Positions 20,588 to 53,733 are shown, counted from the first letter of the stretch. The stretch is 64,000 nucleotides of DNA from Parcubacteria group bacterium Gr01-1014_29 (GCA_007376195.1 VMFT01000002.1:1273-65272); one strand, 5' to 3'. The notes: generated from the sequence alone by a model not told the origin. Made by a program: numbers and translations.

Positions 20588-20676
20588 TTAGGCGCTAGGC
20601 ACTAGGCGTTAGGAACTAAGAAAGAAAAATATCTTTCTAGCATCCAGAGCCTAAAGCCTAAAGCCTAAAGCCTAAT
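20588..20676. repeat. intergenic palindromic element, ctaggc/cctaaag arrayed-heptamer type
   Basis: Left arm ttaggcgctaggcactaggcgttagg, right arm cctaaagcctaaagcctaaagcctaa, around an AT-rich centre that has its own inner palindrome. Confidence 0.5.
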
Positions 20677-21716: not shown

Positions 21717-21790
21717 GAATCAACGAATAGCGAATCAGAAACGAATTTACGAATGAGGTGAATTAAGCTAAAAATAAGTCCTATTCGTTG
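21717..21790. repeat. acgaat-type TIR element (cargo-less copy) related to the GxxExxY cassette ends
   Basis: atcaacgaatagcgaatcagaaacgaatttacgaatg ... cctattcgttgat. The ends resemble the 30-bp TIRs at 38552 and 38984. Confidence 0.4.
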
Positions 21791-21800
21791 ATAAAATATT

Positions 21801-29831: not shown

Positions 29832-29856
29832 TAACGCCTAAAGCCTAGCGCCTAAT
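29832..29856. repeat. solo arm of the ctaggc/cctaaag palindromic element family
   Basis: ctaacgcctaaagcctagcgcctaa immediately upstream of the ATG at 29863. Confidence 0.35.
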
Positions 29857-36180: not shown

Positions 36181-36867
36181 ATGATTATGGATACAAGCGC
36201 TCTGAGTTTTATATTCCAAATAGCCATACTCGTTATGTCTGTGGTAATTCATGAAGTATCGCACGGTTTTATGGCTTATGCGCTGGGCGATCCTACCGCC
36301 AAATATGCCGGGCGGCTTACCTTAAATCCGATACCGCATATTGATCCGTTTGGTTCGATTATACTTCCGTTTGTTCTTTCCTTGTTGCCGGGCGGGATAG
36401 TGTTTGGCTATGCAAAACCAGTGCCTTATAATCCTTACAATCTTCGTGACCAAAAATGGGGCCCCGCATTAGTGGCTGGCGTGGGTCCGCTTTCAAATCT
36501 GTTTGTTGCGTTCGTGTTTGGACTCATTATCCGTTTTGGCGCGACTACTTCATTTGCGATCCCCGCTGCATTTTTTGAAATTGCATCCCTTATTGTTCTT
36601 TTAAATATTGTGCTTGCGGTATTCAACTTGGTGCCAATACCGCCGCTTGATGGCTCGCGCGTGCTCTTTACACTGCTTCCATACCACATGGATCACATCC
36701 GGCAGTTTCTGGAACAATATGGCTATATCTTACTGCTTGTGTTTATTTTCTTTTTCTTCCACATACTGCATCCTATCATCGAACAATTATTTTATTGGTT
36801 TACAGGTTTAGGGCCCAACCTCCTGGGGGATTTCATTGAATGTTTTCGCCATGGTTGTTCTTTATGA
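36181..36867 (+). CDS. site-2 protease family (M50) membrane metalloprotease
   Basis: HEVSHGFMA (HExxH) in a TM helix; LTLNPIPHIDPFG. Confidence 0.65.
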   Translation: MIMDTSALSFIFQIAILVMSVVIHEVSHGFMAYALGDPTAKYAGRLTLNPIPHIDPFGSIILPFVLSLLPGGIVFGYAKPVPYNPYNLRDQKWGPALVAGVGPLSNLFVAFVFGLIIRFGATTSFAIPAAFFEIASLIVLLNIVLAVFNLVPIPPLDGSRVLFTLLPYHMDHIRQFLEQYGYILLLVFIFFFFHILHPIIEQLFYWFTGLGPNLLGDFIECFRHGCSL

Positions 36868-37139
36868 TCATGGATGATAATGAGTTATACGGACGTAACT
36901 TCTTGCTTTCCGCGGCTTACTGTGATACAAATGCCAATATGCAGCAGGTTGTTGAACAAAAAATGAATTATGGAAAGGTGCTGGAACGGCAGGAAATTAT
37001 CCTGCGGGAGATTGATCAGATCAAAACTAAGATGCGACTACTTGGTTCTTTGGGTCGCTTCAAGGAAGTTGCACGGAGAGGGCAGCAATTTGCAAAGAAA
37101 CATGGGATAACACAAAAAGACGTTCTTGAGAATGATTAA
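36864..37139 (+). CDS. hypothetical protein, candidate antitoxin partner of the downstream PIN gene
   Basis: Small helical ORF that overlaps the PIN-gene start. Confidence 0.3.
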   Translation: MIMDDNELYGRNFLLSAAYCDTNANMQQVVEQKMNYGKVLERQEIILREIDQIKTKMRLLGSLGRFKEVARRGQQFAKKHGITQKDVLEND

Positions 37140-37533
37140 AGTTGTATTAGATACCAATGTTGTTATTTCTGCGCTTTTTTGGAAAGGTGTCCCCCACACT
37201 ATTGCTGAAAAAGGACTCAAAGGAAGTTTTGTACTTGTAACGTCGCATGAGATTCTAAAGGAGATTAAAGACAAACTTGAGGGAAAGTTCAGATTTCCTA
37301 CAATAGATACTGCCGCTTTTATCGATATTCTTGTACTAAACTCTGAAATTGTTATGCCAGTGGAGAAGCTCAATGTTGTTAGTAAAGATCCTACGGACAA
37401 TAAAATAGTTGAGTGCGCTATTGCTGGTAAAGTTGACTATATTATTTCTGGTGATAAGCATCTTTTGAATATCAAAGGATATGAGGGAGCGAGAATTATT
37501 TCTCCCACAGAATTTCTGAAACTGATTAGTTGA
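37126..37533 (+). CDS. PIN-domain (VapC-like) ribonuclease
   Basis: VLDTNVVISAL, DPTDNKIVECA and ISGDK acidic residues typical of PIN. Confidence 0.6.
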   Translation: MRMIKVVLDTNVVISALFWKGVPHTIAEKGLKGSFVLVTSHEILKEIKDKLEGKFRFPTIDTAAFIDILVLNSEIVMPVEKLNVVSKDPTDNKIVECAIAGKVDYIISGDKHLLNIKGYEGARIISPTEFLKLIS

Positions 37534-37992: not shown

Positions 37993-38067
37993 GCTCTAGA
38001 GGGTTAGGCGCTAGGCTTTAGGAAAAGATATAGAAATGTCTTCTAGAGCCTAAGGCCTAGTGCCTAA
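37991..38067. repeat. intergenic palindromic element (ctaggc type)
   Basis: ...gggttaggcgctaggctttagg ... cctaaggcctagtgcctaa, with nested ctctagag arms. Confidence 0.5.
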
Positions 38068-38079
38068 TTTTCTAAACAA

Positions 38080-38550
38080 ATGAGACGAAAACCAGCAACA
38101 AAACGAGAAATACCGGCAGATTACAAATGGGACTCCCCGCGAGTTGCCAAGTTTGTAAATATAATCATGTGGGACGGCAAGAAATCAGTTGCCGAACACG
38201 TTGTATATGATGCGTTGGATATCGTTGCAAAAAAAGCGAGCGTGGAAAATCCTGTCGTGGTTTTTGACCTTGCGCTCGACAATGTTGCGCCGCTTGTGGA
38301 AGTGCGTTCGCGCCGCGTAGGAGGTGCAAACTATCAAGTTCCGGTAGAGGTGCGCGGGCCGCGCCGCATGACGCTTGCGATGCGCTGGCTTGCAGCCGCC
38401 GCCCGTTCGCGCAAAGGCGCGCCTATGGCCGAACGCCTCGCGGAAGAGTTGTTTCTGGCATCCAAAAACGAAGGCGTTGCAATAAAGAAGAAACTAGACA
38501 CGCATCGCATGGCGGACGCCAACAAGGCATTTGCTCATTTTGCGTGGTAG
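38080..38550 (+). CDS. rpsG: 30S ribosomal protein S7
   Basis: S7 family sequence; canonical str-operon position. Confidence 0.9.
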
Positions 38551-38551
38551 A

Positions 38552-39013
38552 AAATCAACGAATAACGAATTAAGTACGAATAAACGAATGAAGGAGTTGA
38601 AAAGAAGTGATTTGGTATATCCCGAATTAAGTTATCGGATTATAGGTTGTGCGTTTGAAGTTTATAACATTTTAGGTCAGGGTCGCCAGGAAAAGCATTA
38701 CCAGAAAGCGTTGGTGGAAGAATTCAAAAACATAGGGCTTGCAATAATTGAACAGGTTTACTATCCTATTTCATTCAAAAATAAAAATATCGGAAAAGAC
38801 TTTCTTGATTTCTTGGTTAATAGTCAGGTAGTTGTAGAAATCAAAAAAGGTGATAGATACTCCAAACAACACATTGATCAAGTATTAGAATATCTTAAAG
38901 TTAGCGACAAACAACTTGCTATCTTAATTAATTTTGGATCGCAGGGTGTCCACTTCAAAAGAATTATAAATTTTAATTCGTAAATTCGTACTTAATTCGT
39001 TATTCGTTGATTT
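38552..39013 (+). mobile_element. cassette with perfect 30-bp terminal inverted repeats (aaatcaacgaataacgaattaagtacgaat) carrying a GxxExxY gene, inserted exactly between rpsG and fusA
   Basis: Left TIR 38552-38581 and right TIR 38984-39013 are exact reverse complements; the fusA ATG is at 39014. Confidence 0.5.
38588..38983 (+). CDS. GxxExxY-family protein (PD-(D/E)XK nuclease superfamily)
   Basis: YPELSYRIIGCAFEVYNILGQG contains the G-x-x-E-x-x-Y motif; AT-rich gene. Confidence 0.55.
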   Translation: MKELKRSDLVYPELSYRIIGCAFEVYNILGQGRQEKHYQKALVEEFKNIGLAIIEQVYYPISFKNKNIGKDFLDFLVNSQVVVEIKKGDRYSKQHIDQVLEYLKVSDKQLAILINFGSQGVHFKRIINFNS

Positions 39014-41107
39014 ATGAGACAATACCCTTTAGAAAAAACTCGTGACTTTGGTATTATCGCTCACATCGACGCTGGCAAAACCACCGTTACCGAGCGCGTT
39101 TTGTTTTACACGGGGGTTTCCCACAAAATCGGCGAGGTGCATGAGGGAAAGGCCATTATGGACTGGATGGAGCAGGAGCGCGAACGCGGCATTACTATCA
39201 CTGCCGCTGCCACAACTTGTTTCTGGAAACGCACCTATGCGCCTGACACGGGAGAATTTCGGTTTAATATTATTGATACCCCGGGCCATGTGGATTTTAC
39301 CGCAGAAGTGGAACGGTCGCTCCGCGTGCTTGATGGAGGAGTGGTGGTGTTTGACGGAGTAGCGGGTGTGGAACCGCAGTCTGAAACCGTATGGCGCCAA
39401 GCCGACAAATACAAAGTGCCGCGCATTTGTTTTATAAACAAGCTTGATCGTATGGGCGCGAGTTTTGAGAAAAGTTTTGCTTCAATTCTCGATCGTCTCA
39501 CACCCAATGCTGTTGCGGTTACCATTCCCATTGGTCTCGAATCAGATTTCGCAGGCATTATTGATTTAGTCCGCATGAAGACGATTAAATTTTTGGGAGA
39601 GCGAGGCGAGCATGTATCAGAATCAGATATTTCGGCAGACAGGAAAGAAGAGGCAAAAAAGTGGCGCGCAGTGCTTCTTGAGAAAGTTGCAGAAACAGAC
39701 GACGTGCTTACGGAAAAGTTTCTTGAAGGAGGTGAAATTTCTGAAGACGAATTGCGAACAGCCCTTCGAAAGGCGACTCTTGCCTACCGCTTGGTCCCCG
39801 TATTTTGCGGGTCTGCTCTCAAGAACAAGGGTGTCCAGATTGTGCTTGACGGTGTCATTGACTATCTTCCCGCGCCGACGGACGTACTGCCCGTTACGGG
39901 GCATGACCCAAAGACAGATGAAGAAATAACACGCCAAGCGCGTGATGATGTTCCATTTGCCGCACTTGCATTTAAGTTGCAGACGGATCCTTATGTGGGC
40001 CAACTGACGTATTTTCGGGTGTATTCTGGCATGCTCGAGGCGGGGTCGTATGTTTTGAACGCGACAAAAGGAGAAAAAGAGCGCGTCGGGCGGATTTTAC
40101 GCATGCATGCGAATGATCGCGAGGATGTAAAAGAAATTTTTGCGGGTGAAATCGGCGCCCTGGTTGGCATGAAGAATACATTTACAGGAGATACGTTGTG
40201 TGATCCCGATCACCCGATTATTTTGGAAAAAATTACGTTCCCGGAACCGGTGGTCGCCATGCGTATTGAGCCAAAGACGAAGGCCGATCAGGAGCGTATG
40301 GGTCTTGCGTTAAAACGCCTGTCTGATGAAGACCCGACGTTTCGCATTAAATCAGACCCTGAAACGCTTGAAACCATTATCGCGGGCATGGGCGAGCTGC
40401 ATTTGGAAATTTTAGTAGACCGCATGAAACGGGAGTTCAAGGTGGACGCAAACATCGGCCGGCCGCAGGTAGCATATAAAGAGACAGTTAAAAAGAAGGC
40501 CGAGGCCGAAGGAAAATATATCCGCCAGTCGGGCGGTAGAGGGCAGTATGGGCATGTGTGGTTGAAGATCGAACCCTTGGAGCGCGGTGCGGGGCTTCTA
40601 TTTGAAGATAAAATAAAAGGAGGTGTGATACCGCGCGAGTATATTTCGGCGGTGGAGAAAGGTGTTCGCGAGGCGGCCGACAAAGGCGTGATAGCCGGCT
40701 TTCCATTCATTGACGCGAAAGTTACTTTGTATGACGGATCATATCACGAAGTAGACTCGTCGGAAGCCGCGTTTAAGATTGCCGGATCCATAGCGTTCCA
40801 GGAAGTTGCTAAACGCGCCAATCCCCTGTTGCTTGAGCCTATTATGAAAGTGGAAGTCGTAACGCCGGATACATTCATGGGAGATGTTACCGGCGATATT
40901 AATTCCAAACGCGGGCGCATTGAAGAGATGTCAGACCGCATGAACGTAAAGGTGATGCAGGCCCAAGTGCCGCTTGCCGAGATGTTCGGTTATGTAACGA
41001 ATCTTCGCTCCATGACCGAAGGCCGCGCAAGCTACACTATGGAATTCAGCCATTATGAGGAAATACCAAAACACGTCGCTGAGCAAATTGTGGAAGGAAG
41101 GAAATGA
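39014..41107 (+). CDS. fusA: elongation factor G
   Basis: [20 protein letters not shown] and the full EF-G domain order. Confidence 0.9.
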
Positions 41108-41287: not shown

Positions 41288-42220
41288 ATGACTATTCGTC
41301 AAAAACTGGAAATTATCCAAAAAATGCTGGGATTAACACAGACAAAGCTCGCCGAAAAATTCGGCGTGTCTTTTGCCGCTTTTAACAGCTGGTGGACCGA
41401 AAAATCAAAGCCCCGGCCTAAAATGCAGGCCGCCATAGACGAGCTGTTTTTGGAAGTGACCGGACAAAAAATAATATCCACTGATCAGCTTACAGCAAAA
41501 AAGCAAGCTCTCCGGCAGAAATCGGGAGAACACAAAAATATTGTGACAGAAATTCTGGATAATCCGGATATCCGCGATCAGTTTATTTTAAAGCTCACCT
41601 ATCATAGCAACAGTATTGAGGGTAGTACGCTTACCGAGCCGGATACAGCGGCGATTCTTTTTGACAATGCGGCTCTGCCCAATAAAAGTTTGACCGAACA
41701 ACTGGAAGCGAAGAATCATCAGACTGCTTTGAATTATTTGTTTGATTATGTCGCCAAAAAAGAAAAAGTTGATGAGGCACTGGTACTTAAACTTCATAGT
41801 ATTCTCATGAATGGTATCCGTCCGGATGCCGGTGTATATCGCAATCATGCTGTCAGAATCACCGGCGTTAATTTGCCAACTGCGAATTATATGAGTGTTC
41901 CTAAATTGATGCCAGAGGTAATGGCTCGAGTCGCTCTAAAAAACACAGACATACTTGCAGAGTCCGCCGGTGTTCATAGCAAATTCGAACAAATTCATCC
42001 TTTTTCCGATGGTAACGGCCGTATTGGACGATTGCTTATGAGCACAATGTTACTTAGTGCAAATTTTGCTCCTGCAATAATTCGTCAGGAACAAAAACGG
42101 CTGTATTACACATATCTTTATAAAGCTCAAACCAAAGATGACCACAGCCAACTAGAGGATTTTCTCTGTGAAGCTGTCAGGGACGGGTTCAAGATTTTGG
42201 AACGCACAGACGCGAGATAA
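41288..42220 (+). CDS. Fic-family protein (AMPylase-type) with N-terminal XRE-type HTH
   Basis: Fic motif HPFSDGNGRIGR; N-terminal LGLTQTKLAEKFGVSFAAFNSW HTH. Confidence 0.7.
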   Translation: MTIRQKLEIIQKMLGLTQTKLAEKFGVSFAAFNSWWTEKSKPRPKMQAAIDELFLEVTGQKIISTDQLTAKKQALRQKSGEHKNIVTEILDNPDIRDQFILKLTYHSNSIEGSTLTEPDTAAILFDNAALPNKSLTEQLEAKNHQTALNYLFDYVAKKEKVDEALVLKLHSILMNGIRPDAGVYRNHAVRITGVNLPTANYMSVPKLMPEVMARVALKNTDILAESAGVHSKFEQIHPFSDGNGRIGRLLMSTMLLSANFAPAIIRQEQKRLYYTYLYKAQTKDDHSQLEDFLCEAVRDGFKILERTDAR

Positions 42221-45290: not shown

Positions 45291-45360
45291 TAGGCACTAG
45301 GCTCTAGGCATTAGGGAAAAAATATATGTTCCCAGCTAGTGCCTAAGGCCTAATGCCTAA
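45291..45360. repeat. intergenic palindromic element (ctaggc type)
   Basis: taggcactaggctctaggcattagg ... cctaaggcctaatgcctaa. Confidence 0.5.
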
Positions 45361-49542: not shown

Positions 49543-49628
49543 TTAGGCTTTAGGCGCTAGGCATTAGAACACTGAATGAAAACTATGTGTCTAGTCCTAG
49601 AGCCTAAGGACTACTATCTAGCGCCTAC
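49543..49628. repeat. intergenic palindromic element (ctaggc type)
   Basis: ttaggctttaggcgctaggcattag ... ctagtcctagagcctaagg ... ctagcgcctac. Confidence 0.5.
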
Positions 49629-50007: not shown

Positions 50008-50085
50008 CTAGGCATTAGGCTCTAGGCACTAGGAAAAGAAATACAAAAGCATTTTTTCCTAAAGCCTAACGCCTAGAGCCTAGAG
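50008..50085. repeat. intergenic palindromic element (ctaggc type)
   Basis: ctaggcattaggctctaggcactagg ... cctaaagcctaacgcctagagcctagag. Confidence 0.5.
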
Positions 50086-50947: not shown

Positions 50948-51012
50948 GGCACTAGGCTCTAGGCCTTAGGATTCTAAGTCCTAGAGCCTAGTGCCTAGGT
51001 TCCTAGCGCCTA
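50942..51012. repeat. intergenic palindromic element (ctaggc type), overlapping the rplE stop
   Basis: cactagggcactaggctctaggccttagg ... cctagagcctagtgcctagg ... cctagcgcctag. Confidence 0.5.
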
Positions 51013-51017
51013 GTATT

Positions 51018-51203: not shown

Positions 51204-51209
51204 GTAGTA

Positions 51210-51292
51210 TCAACGAATAACGAATCTGTTACGAATAAACGAATAATAACCGCTGAATTCCATTCGTACATTCGTACAAGATTCGTTATTCG
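51210..51292. repeat. acgaat-type TIR element (cargo-less copy); ends nearly identical to the TIRs of the GxxExxY cassette
   Basis: atcaacgaataacgaatctgttacgaataaacgaat ... attcgtacattcgtacaagattcgttattcgatg. Confidence 0.5.
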
Positions 51293-51304
51293 ATGATTGT
51301 TTTT

Positions 51305-53231: not shown

Positions 53232-53669
53232 ATGCAACTGCATACCATATCAGCGCCAAAACATACATCTGCCAAACGCATTGGCCGCGGCGGCAAGCGC
53301 GGCACGTTTTCGGGTCGCGGCACCAAAGGCCAAAAAGCGCGGGCTGGTCGCCGTATTCGTCCGCAATTGCGCGATATATTGAAAAAAATCCCAAAGAAAC
53401 GCGGGTATCGTTTTACGTCATTTCGCGCGCGACCAATCGGTGTTAACCTTTCCATCCTCAATGAAAAGTTTGAGTCGGGCGGTGTTGTTTCTCCTCAGAC
53501 GCTTGTCGAAGGGGGCATGGTATCCCGGAAGGGTGGTGCGTATCCTTCCGTAAAGATTCTTGGCACAGGAATTATTTCAAAAAAGCTTACCATTGAAGGA
53601 TGTCAGATTTCCGCATCAGCAAAAGAGAAGATCGAAAAAGCGGGAGGAAAACTAGTAGCTAGGCGTTAG
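53232..53669 (+). CDS. rplO: 50S ribosomal protein L15 (directly after S5; no L30 gene in between)
   Basis: MQLHTISAPKHTSAKRIGRGGKRGTFSGRG; start taken inside ORF 53112..53669. Confidence 0.85.
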   Translation: MQLHTISAPKHTSAKRIGRGGKRGTFSGRGTKGQKARAGRRIRPQLRDILKKIPKKRGYRFTSFRARPIGVNLSILNEKFESGGVVSPQTLVEGGMVSRKGGAYPSVKILGTGIISKKLTIEGCQISASAKEKIEKAGGKLVARR

Positions 53670-53733
53670 GCACTAGGCGCTAGAGGAACAAAAAAATATT
53701 CTAGAGCCCTAAAGCCTAAAGCCTAAAGCCTAA
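53652..53733. repeat. intergenic palindromic element (ctaggc/cctaaag type), overlapping the rplO stop
   Basis: ctagtagctaggcgttaggcactaggcgctagagg ... ctagagccctaaagcctaaagcctaaagcctaaa. Confidence 0.5.

Follow-up and report, generated by a model that had tools for sequence, protein, structure and literature searches.

Between the genes for ribosomal protein S7 (rpsG) and elongation factor G (EF-G; fusA), the str operon of Parcubacteria group bacterium Gr01-1014_29 holds an insert of 462 nucleotides (nt) in which a small nuclease gene of the GxxExxY family is enclosed by two inverted arms built of the repeated pentamer CGAAT. The stretch analysed here, called the window, comprises 64,000 nt of this genome (GCA_007376195.1 VMFT01000002.1:1273-65272), and coordinates are counted from its first letter. 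The gene and its arms form one unit across the sampled subfamily, since all 69 distinct homologues carry arms on at least one side. On this basis, the insert is tentatively proposed to be a gene-bearing member of a nuclease-associated palindromic repeat family, in which the nuclease would be the partner of the repeats that surround it.

The nuclease gene and its arms

The features of the insert and its two flanks are as follows (ORF, open reading frame; aa, amino acids):

38080..38550, + strand: rpsG (ribosomal protein S7), upstream flank; ORF and translation, whose product used as query matched S7 proteins, PF00177
38552..38592, + strand: left arm; AAATCAA, then CGAAT at 38559-63, 38566-70, 38577-81 and 38585-89
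38588..38983, + strand: GxxExxY / PD-(D/E)XK nuclease gene, 131 aa; Pfam and NCBIfam matches, invariant columns, AlphaFold model
38973..39013, + strand: right arm; ATTCG at 38976-80, 38984-88, 38995-99 and 39002-06, then TTGATTT; abuts the fusA ATG
39014..41107, + strand: fusA (EF-G), downstream flank; ORF, with the Pfam domains of the identical gene in locus L001

Direct reading of the sequence gives AAATCAACGAATAACGAATTAAGTACGAAT at 38552-38581 and its exact reverse complement at 38984-39013. The perfect 30-base-pair (bp) terminal inverted repeats (TIRs) of the original prediction, made from the sequence alone, therefore stand, and their pairing reaches inward to 41 nt with 93% complementarity (38552-38592 with 38973-39013). 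When AAATCAACGAATAACGAATTAAGTACGAAT was searched in the window with up to three mismatches, only two sites were found, the two arms themselves (expected 0.00 in 100 shuffles). The rpsG stop codon occupies 38548-38550, the single base 38551 precedes the left arm, and the right arm ends at 39013, with the fusA ATG starting at 39014. These coordinates bear out the limits first given for the insert, from 1 nt after the rpsG stop up to the fusA ATG, and the arms and the nuclease gene fill the whole spacer. The gene and the arms also share bases: the start codon overlaps the innermost left pentamer (CGAATG), and the last codons, AAT TCG TAA, fall inside the right arm, in its first word.

The left arm follows the formula (A)ATCAA-CGAAT-AA-CGAAT-N5-7-CGAAT-N3-CGAAT, which the right arm mirrors, a layout which is found again in homologous loci. 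An arm consists of four or five CGAAT words at fixed spacing, the caps being ATCAA at one end of the element and TTGAT at the opposite end. The long spacer of the window element is perfectly complementary between the arms (TAAGTA/TACTTA), which is an exception within the family. Clusters of at least three CGAAT/ATTCG pentamers occur in only three elements of the 64 kb.

The ORF at 38588-38983 matches Pfam PDDEXK_3 (PF13366; E-value 1.6e-31, 109.5 bits, cut-off 22) and NCBIfam TIGR04256, GxxExxY (E-value 2.6e-32, 111.6 bits, cut-off 35). These matches, together with a G+C content of 30-34% against about 50% in the flanking genes, confirm the AT-rich GxxExxY gene of the PD-(D/E)XK superfamily that had been recognised inside the str operon. 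Its motif reads G-R-Q-E-K-H-Y, and G32-x-x-E35-x-x-Y38, D74, E84-x-K86 and Q98 are invariant in the alignment of 27 homologues. The AlphaFold model (predicted local distance difference test, pLDDT, 93) has the PD-(D/E)XK core fold. Foldseek recovered the generic minimal nuclease core only, in Cas4 SSO0001, lambda-type exonucleases, tRNA-splicing endonucleases and a Holliday-junction resolvase, ST1444 (Hjc), which superposes with a root-mean-square deviation of 2.6 Å over 98 columns. The 131-aa protein is thus predicted to be a minimal PD-(D/E)XK endonuclease with an intact active site.

A sequence search for solved structures gave no meaningful relative of the nuclease. PADLOC models yielded weak matches to the Cas4 nuclease core only (E-value 2e-4 and weaker) and the PHROGs phage families none, so that identity as a defence-system or phage protein was rejected. 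The identical protein has a database entry under Parcubacteria group bacterium Gr01-1014_29, where it is annotated as hypothetical, and a survey of the superfamily from 2012 lists PDDEXK_3 as 'Unknown' (PMC3424549).

Pentamer arrays at homologous loci and in other genomes

A metagenome scan with the alignment of the 27 homologues provided 80 loci, 69 of them distinct after removal of near-duplicates (those kept being less than 90% identical). The loci were found via the gene or the arm, so the frequencies are conditional on that, and the taxon labels of metagenome-assembled genomes (MAGs) are those deposited. Pentamer arrays lie on both sides of the gene in 51 of the 69 loci, on the right side only in 13 and on the left side only in five, some of these being cut by contig ends; no locus lacks them on both sides. 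As background, 2.4% of random 75-nt windows from these loci reach the array criterion. The gene had been regarded as the incidental cargo of one copy, a view which these counts contradict.

Protein relatives at 66-82% identity are also found at rpsG-fusA with the same arms, and a relative at 65% identity, which has these arms too, precedes a PrgI-like secretion gene. Downstream, with only the strand of the nuclease gene scanned, 57 of the 69 loci have an ORF that begins no more than about 220 nt from this gene, and these downstream genes fall into 42 clusters, including EF-G, S8, L24, L16, S21, DnaG, RecJ, ClpB, TrmD and the PrgI-like protein. The fit to the neighbouring genes is close at both ends. 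The left arm begins 1-3 nt past the upstream stop or supplies that stop, and upstream ORFs often read into it, ending ATC AAC GAA TAA (...INE and stop). Between the right arm and the next ATG there are 0-10 nt, and right-end variants (GATGATG) provide this ATG. The element can therefore replace the whole stop-to-start junction.

Two further arrangements were observed. Tandem right arms, two or more, follow the GxxExxY gene in L140, L151, L156, L168, L202 and L204-L209, and two GxxExxY genes lie within a few kb of each other in L139 and L202, the pair in L139 differing in its word (ATTCG versus ACAAAT).

What is conserved in the arms is the pentamer words; the spacers show neither conservation nor complementarity. 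Over the 45 elements parsed in full, the left-right complementarity of the long spacer (S2) was 44.5%, as against 44.5 ± 3.8% with arms shuffled between elements. With the flanking genes setting the orientation, the three variable positions of the outer block gave 48 Watson-Crick pairs, 12 G-U pairs (sense strand), 10 A-C pairs and 17 others, and the G-U and A-C counts indicate no bias to the transcribed (RNA) strand. A plain RNA stem under covariation was rejected for these two reasons. In variant lineages the two arms have changed their word together (CTAAT/ATTAG, CAAAT/ATTTG, ACGAAA/TTTCG).

The same holds within one genome. The window contains, besides the insert at rpsG-fusA, two gene-less copies:

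51209..51297, no strand assigned: complete gene-less palindrome that fills the rpsN-rpsH spacer; 4+4 pentamers, 17-nt loop
21719..21792, no strand assigned: degenerate gene-less member; left arm complete (ATCAACGAATAGCGAAT..CGAAT..CGAAT), right arm consisting of the outer ten bases ATTCGTTGAT only

Both had been noticed before and belong to the same family, but their limits shift from 51210-51292 and 21717-21790 to those given here. The three window copies share the pentamers (the right arm of 21719-21792 being reduced) but differ at nearly every spacer base, so the near-identical terminal sequences attributed to them do not hold beyond the words; within-genome copies in L035, L110 and L125 likewise differ in their spacers. 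No target-site duplication was seen, by eye and without a formal count, at the three window copies or at the junctions read elsewhere. The arms, which had been taken for ordinary transposon TIRs, are instead pentamer arrays with free, non-complementary spacers. The RNA of 51209-51297 folds at -34.5 kcal/mol (z -7.0), and the spacer before rpsH, gene-less in the window, holds a GxxExxY gene and a right arm in L139 and L141. The copy at 21719-21792 sits between a stop codon and the next ATG, after the gene called nrdB in the original prediction.

One genome per species was scanned for ATCAACGAATARCGAAT, and at least 116 loci were obtained. With a real array defined as at least four words of one orientation, or three plus three, 79 of 116 among the matches listed are real: 42 in Patescibacteria (Parcubacteria lineages, Saccharibacteria, Gottesmanbacteria), 27 in Bacteroidota, five in MAGs labelled Proteobacteria or Desulfobacterota and five unclassified. 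In the other 37 there are no pentamers beyond those of the query pattern, or just one, and these matches may be due to chance. Most of the real matches listed consist either of a palindrome of about 75-95 bp or of a single arm, and only about four adjoin a GxxExxY gene, so that among these matches the gene-less copies outnumber the gene-bearing ones. The palindromes lie between co-directional genes in 15 of the 16 cases in which both neighbours could be called, and many gene-less copies have the centre CGAAT-TCGTAA-ATTCG. The family, first described as small, is thus far larger, with arrays in both Patescibacteria and Bacteroidota, and the search of related loci for further copies, as had been suggested, found many with the gene and many without it.

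Besides palindromes, single half-arms of four or five CGAAT words stand directly before an ATG in L098, L105, L084, L033, L023 and L021, with no partner arm nearby. The genes that follow, judged from their N-termini, are tpiA, rnc, pth (twice), fusA and one gene in a MAG labelled Chitinophaga. In four Bacteroidota MAGs (L024, L026, L070, L132) CGAAT occurs in tandem runs with a period of 7-8 nt and up to 14 in a row, and some of the long runs in this phylum fold into hairpins immediately ahead of a gene start; the tandem runs may represent an expanded version of the arrays. Carriage of the arms by phages was rejected, because the two matches on viral contigs hold only the two pentamers of the query pattern, which is attributed to chance.

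Seven distant homologues (29-35% identity), all on plasmids or chromids, were also inspected. Inverted arms enclose the gene in Bacteroides finegoldii (L231, plasmid; 30 nt, CAGAGGA-type words, 90% complementary), in Bernardetia (L219, plasmid; 28 nt, CACAGAGA words) and in Sphingomonas parapaucimobilis (L230, plasmid; 25 nt, CGCGAAG words, 92% complementary). In Treponema there is a 16-nt inverted repeat, in Gemmatirosa a CGCGGAT-array palindrome just downstream, and in Fusobacteria and Persicobacter the repeats are in direct orientation. Judged from these sequences, the gene-in-inverted-array architecture looks general for the family. Related to this, the genes of L230, L231 and L219 lie between co-directional housekeeping genes (between fabD and fabG in L230, after radA and after ade in the others), and the arms of L230 and L231 start with TTCAC and end with GTGAA.

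Persistence and operon setting of the element

The gene at rpsG-fusA is not a newcomer. The window was compared with L005, which carries the same unit, by the proportion of synonymous differences (pS) and by the synonymous (dS) and non-synonymous (dN) rates. For GxxExxY and fusA, respectively, pS is 0.70 and 0.72, dS about 2 and about 2.5, and dN/dS 0.05 and 0.03, the synonymous sites being saturated; against L007 and L011, dN is 0.23-0.26 for GxxExxY and 0.25-0.26 for fusA. The window and L005 agree in all pentamers and in the two outer caps, and the differences lie in the spacers. Across nine rpsG-fusA loci most pentamers likewise persist while spacers differ; one or two words are lost in each of L011, L137, L143 and L167, and the left arm is lost in L168. 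These comparisons indicate that purifying selection acts at this site on both gene and arms, which would not be expected of a recently landed selfish insert, and a recent insertion is at odds with a unit present there in lineages of saturated synonymous divergence.

On the other hand, strict co-divergence with the host is weakly supported. The pairwise identities of EF-G and GxxExxY are weakly correlated (Pearson 0.41), and L168 is discordant, its EF-G being 93-94% identical to those of L007 and L158 and its nuclease just 62-63%. The GxxExxY gene is absent from rpsG-fusA in the four S7 relatives looked up (76-88% identity, some named Ryanbacteria), whose spacers hold other inserts: two small ORFs, a 63-aa ORF, 170 nt of other sequence, or other genes. 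An ancestral, universal str-operon gene was rejected on these grounds. The original prediction had named orthologous genes without repeats as the sign of such an ancestral gene; the orthologous genes carry the repeats, and the closest S7 relatives are those without the gene. One Patescibacteria genome (L023) has a left arm only at this junction. Since the gene is long resident and yet replaced or absent in relatives, rpsG-fusA appears to be a long-lived but contested slot. The window itself contains one GxxExxY copy. A separate observation is that in one of the S7 relatives (L225:2972-3281; S7 78% identical) the 63-aa ORF at rpsG-fusA lies in inverted CAAAAT/ATTTTG arrays, which is the same architecture with a different word and cargo.

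At the RNA level, the transcript of the element folds with its arms paired (minimum free energy -111.5 kcal/mol, z -4.0). No Shine-Dalgarno motif is possible for fusA, because the arm reaches the ATG. Among the str/S10/spc gene starts of the window (37549-57956), for most genes no Shine-Dalgarno-like motif lies 30 nt or less from the ATG, and the organism seems to rely on other start-site signals. A known RNA family was rejected, as Rfam found only tRNAs in the window and 20 related loci, with no family matching the elements and no rRNA.

The same operons contain other inserts. A second palindrome family, of tandem heptamers (A/T/G)GCCTA(A/G) (GCCTAR), fills the spacers rpsL-rpsG, rplN-rplX, rplE-rpsN and rplO-secY. 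Its palindromes lie at 20588-20675, 38004-38067, 50008-50083, 50952-51013 and 53659-53733, and its single arms at 29836-29855, 45341-45360 and 49543-49562; 13 clusters occur in the window versus none in shuffles, and the rpsL-rpsG copy folds at -45.9 kcal/mol (z -7.2). Just before rpsL, 36840-37533 holds ORFs of 99 and 135 aa, at a place where the relative L225 has a MazE and PIN pair, and after fusA a Fic-domain gene occupies 41288-42220 (PF02661 on the identical gene in L001). Both regions are AT-rich relative to their neighbours. In L011, a relative with the GxxExxY element, a 58-aa ORF with a GIY-YIG domain lies between fusA and tuf (L011:5567-5743).

Possible explanations and comparison with known systems

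If the insert is a gene-bearing member of a nuclease-associated palindromic repeat family, as we tentatively suppose, the GxxExxY protein would be the partner that recognises the arrays by their sequence. It would bind the pentamers repeated in its own arms and in the many gene-less palindromes and would nick or cut the arrays, possibly as a hairpin or cruciform, and this binding and cutting would spread or maintain the repeat family, as the RAYT transposase serves REPINs. The nuclease gene would be read from the str-operon transcript, as its position and co-orientation suggest. In that transcript the arms would pair and bring the rpsG stop and the fusA start to the foot of one stem, which could make a 462-nt insert tolerable in an essential operon. 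This partnership is favoured because several fixed words per arm with free spacers are the signature of a sequence-specific multi-site binder, because the word differs between protein subfamilies and because the protein is the only constant neighbour of the arrays.

Several points weigh against the partnership. The link between protein and arrays rests on co-location, and their co-occurrence was scored at the level of single loci. The joint change of motif in both arms could reflect shared descent, gene and arms being physically linked. Half-arms stand alone before tpiA, rnc and pth in either orientation, which hints at a nuclease-independent function, and the GCCTAR palindromes fill spacers of the same operons with no partner gene known. 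The nuclease and RAYT are members of different superfamilies, so that a mechanism cannot be transferred by homology, and no insertion polymorphism was observed between close strains.

Much of the evidence can also be read at the level of RNA. The element would then be an mRNA counterpart of the ORF-bearing intervening sequences (IVSs) of 23S ribosomal RNA (rRNA), whose paired arms let RNase III excise the insert or couple fusA initiation to rpsG termination, the gene being a passenger or a decaying selfish gene. The folding with paired arms (z -4.0, and z -7.0 for the gene-less copy), the tight fit of the arms to the upstream stop and the next ATG, the position almost only between co-directional genes (15/16 callable), the outer 17-bp block as the best conserved part, an operon mostly without Shine-Dalgarno motifs, in which access to start sites may depend on RNA structure, and the likeness to the Coxiella IVS (terminal stem, ORF, heptamers, RNase III; PMC4990558) all agree with this explanation. 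However, a stem requires complementarity and not a fixed word, whereas these elements have words that stay fixed across phyla and spacers that are non-complementary. Besides, G-U pairs among the mismatches do not favour the transcribed strand, the gene is not decaying (dN/dS 0.05, catalytic residues invariant), half-arms occur alone and no Rfam family matches the elements. We consider it rather unlikely that RNA behaviour is what the element is for, although the two explanations are compatible and a partnership of protein and arrays on DNA may coexist with selection for harmless RNA behaviour. It is improbable, in our opinion, that the gene is a free-standing homing endonuclease, which would cut the gene-less palindrome near its centre and be copied in by repair from a gene-bearing copy, with the arms as homology. 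The gene-less centre CGAAT-TCGTAA-ATTCG is indeed the exact remainder after removal of the ORF from CGA[ATG...AAT]TCGTAA-ATTCG, and the spacer before rpsH lacks the gene in the window but holds it in L139 and L141. The weak correlation of EF-G with GxxExxY (r 0.41) and the discordant L168 suggest replacement at the same site, and str operons gather small genes often regarded as selfish (the PIN/MazE pair, Fic, GIY-YIG). Nevertheless, homing would have to be very inefficient, given that among the matches listed gene-less copies greatly outnumber gene-bearing ones; the homology arms are of about 40 bp with divergent spacers, 13 loci have no left arm, and a long residence with dN like that of fusA is unusual for an invading homing gene.

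The explanation closest to the original prediction is an ordinary TIR transposon, or a family of miniature inverted-repeat transposable elements (MITEs), moved by an unseen transposase, with the GxxExxY gene acquired as cargo and inserted recently into the str operon. It accounts for the perfect 30-nt terminal inverted repeats, for the AT-rich interior and for the short gene-less copies elsewhere in the window. It conflicts with the absence of target-site duplication at every junction read, with same-genome copies that differ in every spacer, with a gene that is the constant companion of the arms and with a unit that is old at rpsG-fusA and under purifying selection. This explanation is largely refuted and we give it very little credence; a classical MITE with duplication was rejected, as no duplication was seen and the copies differ in their spacers. 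Returning to the partnership of nuclease and arrays, a broader proposal is conceivable, although we hold it with considerable doubt: the GxxExxY proteins (PF13366 / TIGR04256) would be the dedicated nucleases of an unrecognised, phylum-spanning class of palindromic 'motif-arrays' with one word per subfamily, CGAAT in Patescibacteria and Bacteroidota and CAGAGGA, CACAGAGA or CGCGAAG elsewhere, whose elements settle at operon stop/start junctions.

No description of these elements or of GxxExxY function was found in the searchable literature, most subscription journals being beyond its reach, and a prior description is possible. A constant, sequence-defined DNA partner would give a directly testable hypothesis of function for the large GxxExxY family. 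If true, this would be a second nuclease-with-repeats system beside REPIN/RAYT, this time in uncultured Patescibacteria, whose genomes are small and streamlined and would not be expected to retain repeats. The elements would also offer a natural system in which to study the tolerance of inserts and their effects on operon expression in essential, Shine-Dalgarno-poor operons.

Among known systems, the outer ATCAAC...GTTGAT resembles at 6/7 positions the outer boxes of the integron attC consensus (RYYYAAC ... GTTRRRY). An attC identity was rejected because the ORF lies inside the palindrome and the copies are single and scattered in operon spacers, with no cassette arrays; the integrase was not searched for. 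Correia/NEMIS, ERIC and RUP are bacterial MITEs co-transcribed with genes, conserved over their full length, with a TA duplication in the case of Correia and with no dedicated nested gene. The present elements are, like them, small palindromes in transcribed spacers able to form long RNA stems, but here the pentamer words alone are conserved and no duplication was seen. Free-standing homing genes between conserved genes include the seg/mob genes of phages, and I-Ssp6803I is a PD-(D/E)XK homing enzyme. A small, co-oriented nuclease gene of deviant base composition between highly conserved genes is common to both cases, whereas the portable conserved arms, the many gene-less relatives and the long residence under purifying selection are different.

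The resemblance is closer to the ORF-bearing 23S IVSs of Coxiella and Leptospira (S23p / four-helix-bundle ORF). Both are inserts of about 430-460 nt in a transcript that is among the most highly expressed, conserved by descent, with a terminal inverted repeat of about 28-41 bp around an ORF of about 120-130 aa and short tandem repeats before it. The IVS of Coxiella combines a 28-bp terminal stem with an internal ORF preceded by tandem heptamers and is cut by RNase III (PMC4990558); its ORF is decaying and probably untranslated. In contrast, the host of the present element is an mRNA operon (rpsG-fusA) and not helix 25 or 45 of 23S rRNA, its ORF is a nuclease with a predicted intact active site under strong selection, and many gene-less copies exist. 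This likeness offers a fresh comparison for the origin of the rRNA intervening sequences.

The REPIN/RAYT system, of REP doublets and REP-associated tyrosine transposases, has a short, single-copy gene flanked by its own repeats and paired specifically with one repeat type (PMC3337134). Both systems have short palindromic doublets scattered through intergenic spacers, a short gene flanked by inverted copies of the same repeats, far more numerous gene-less copies, a separate repeat type for each gene type and long-term persistence in the lineage. As for single copy and vertical descent, the window has one copy in 64 kb, but L139 and L202 have two that lie no more than a few kb apart; dN resembles the fusA value, yet the nuclease identities correlate weakly with those of EF-G and the closest relatives lack the gene. 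The differences are clear: a PD-(D/E)XK nuclease instead of an HUH/Y1 (IS200-like) transposase, pentamer-array arms with free spacers instead of a single REP hairpin with a GTAG head, elements that fill operon stop-to-start junctions, and one word common to several phyla. Under the broader proposal, the motif-arrays would be a PD-(D/E)XK counterpart of REPIN/RAYT and, possibly, as a relative of the ORF-bearing rRNA intervening sequences.

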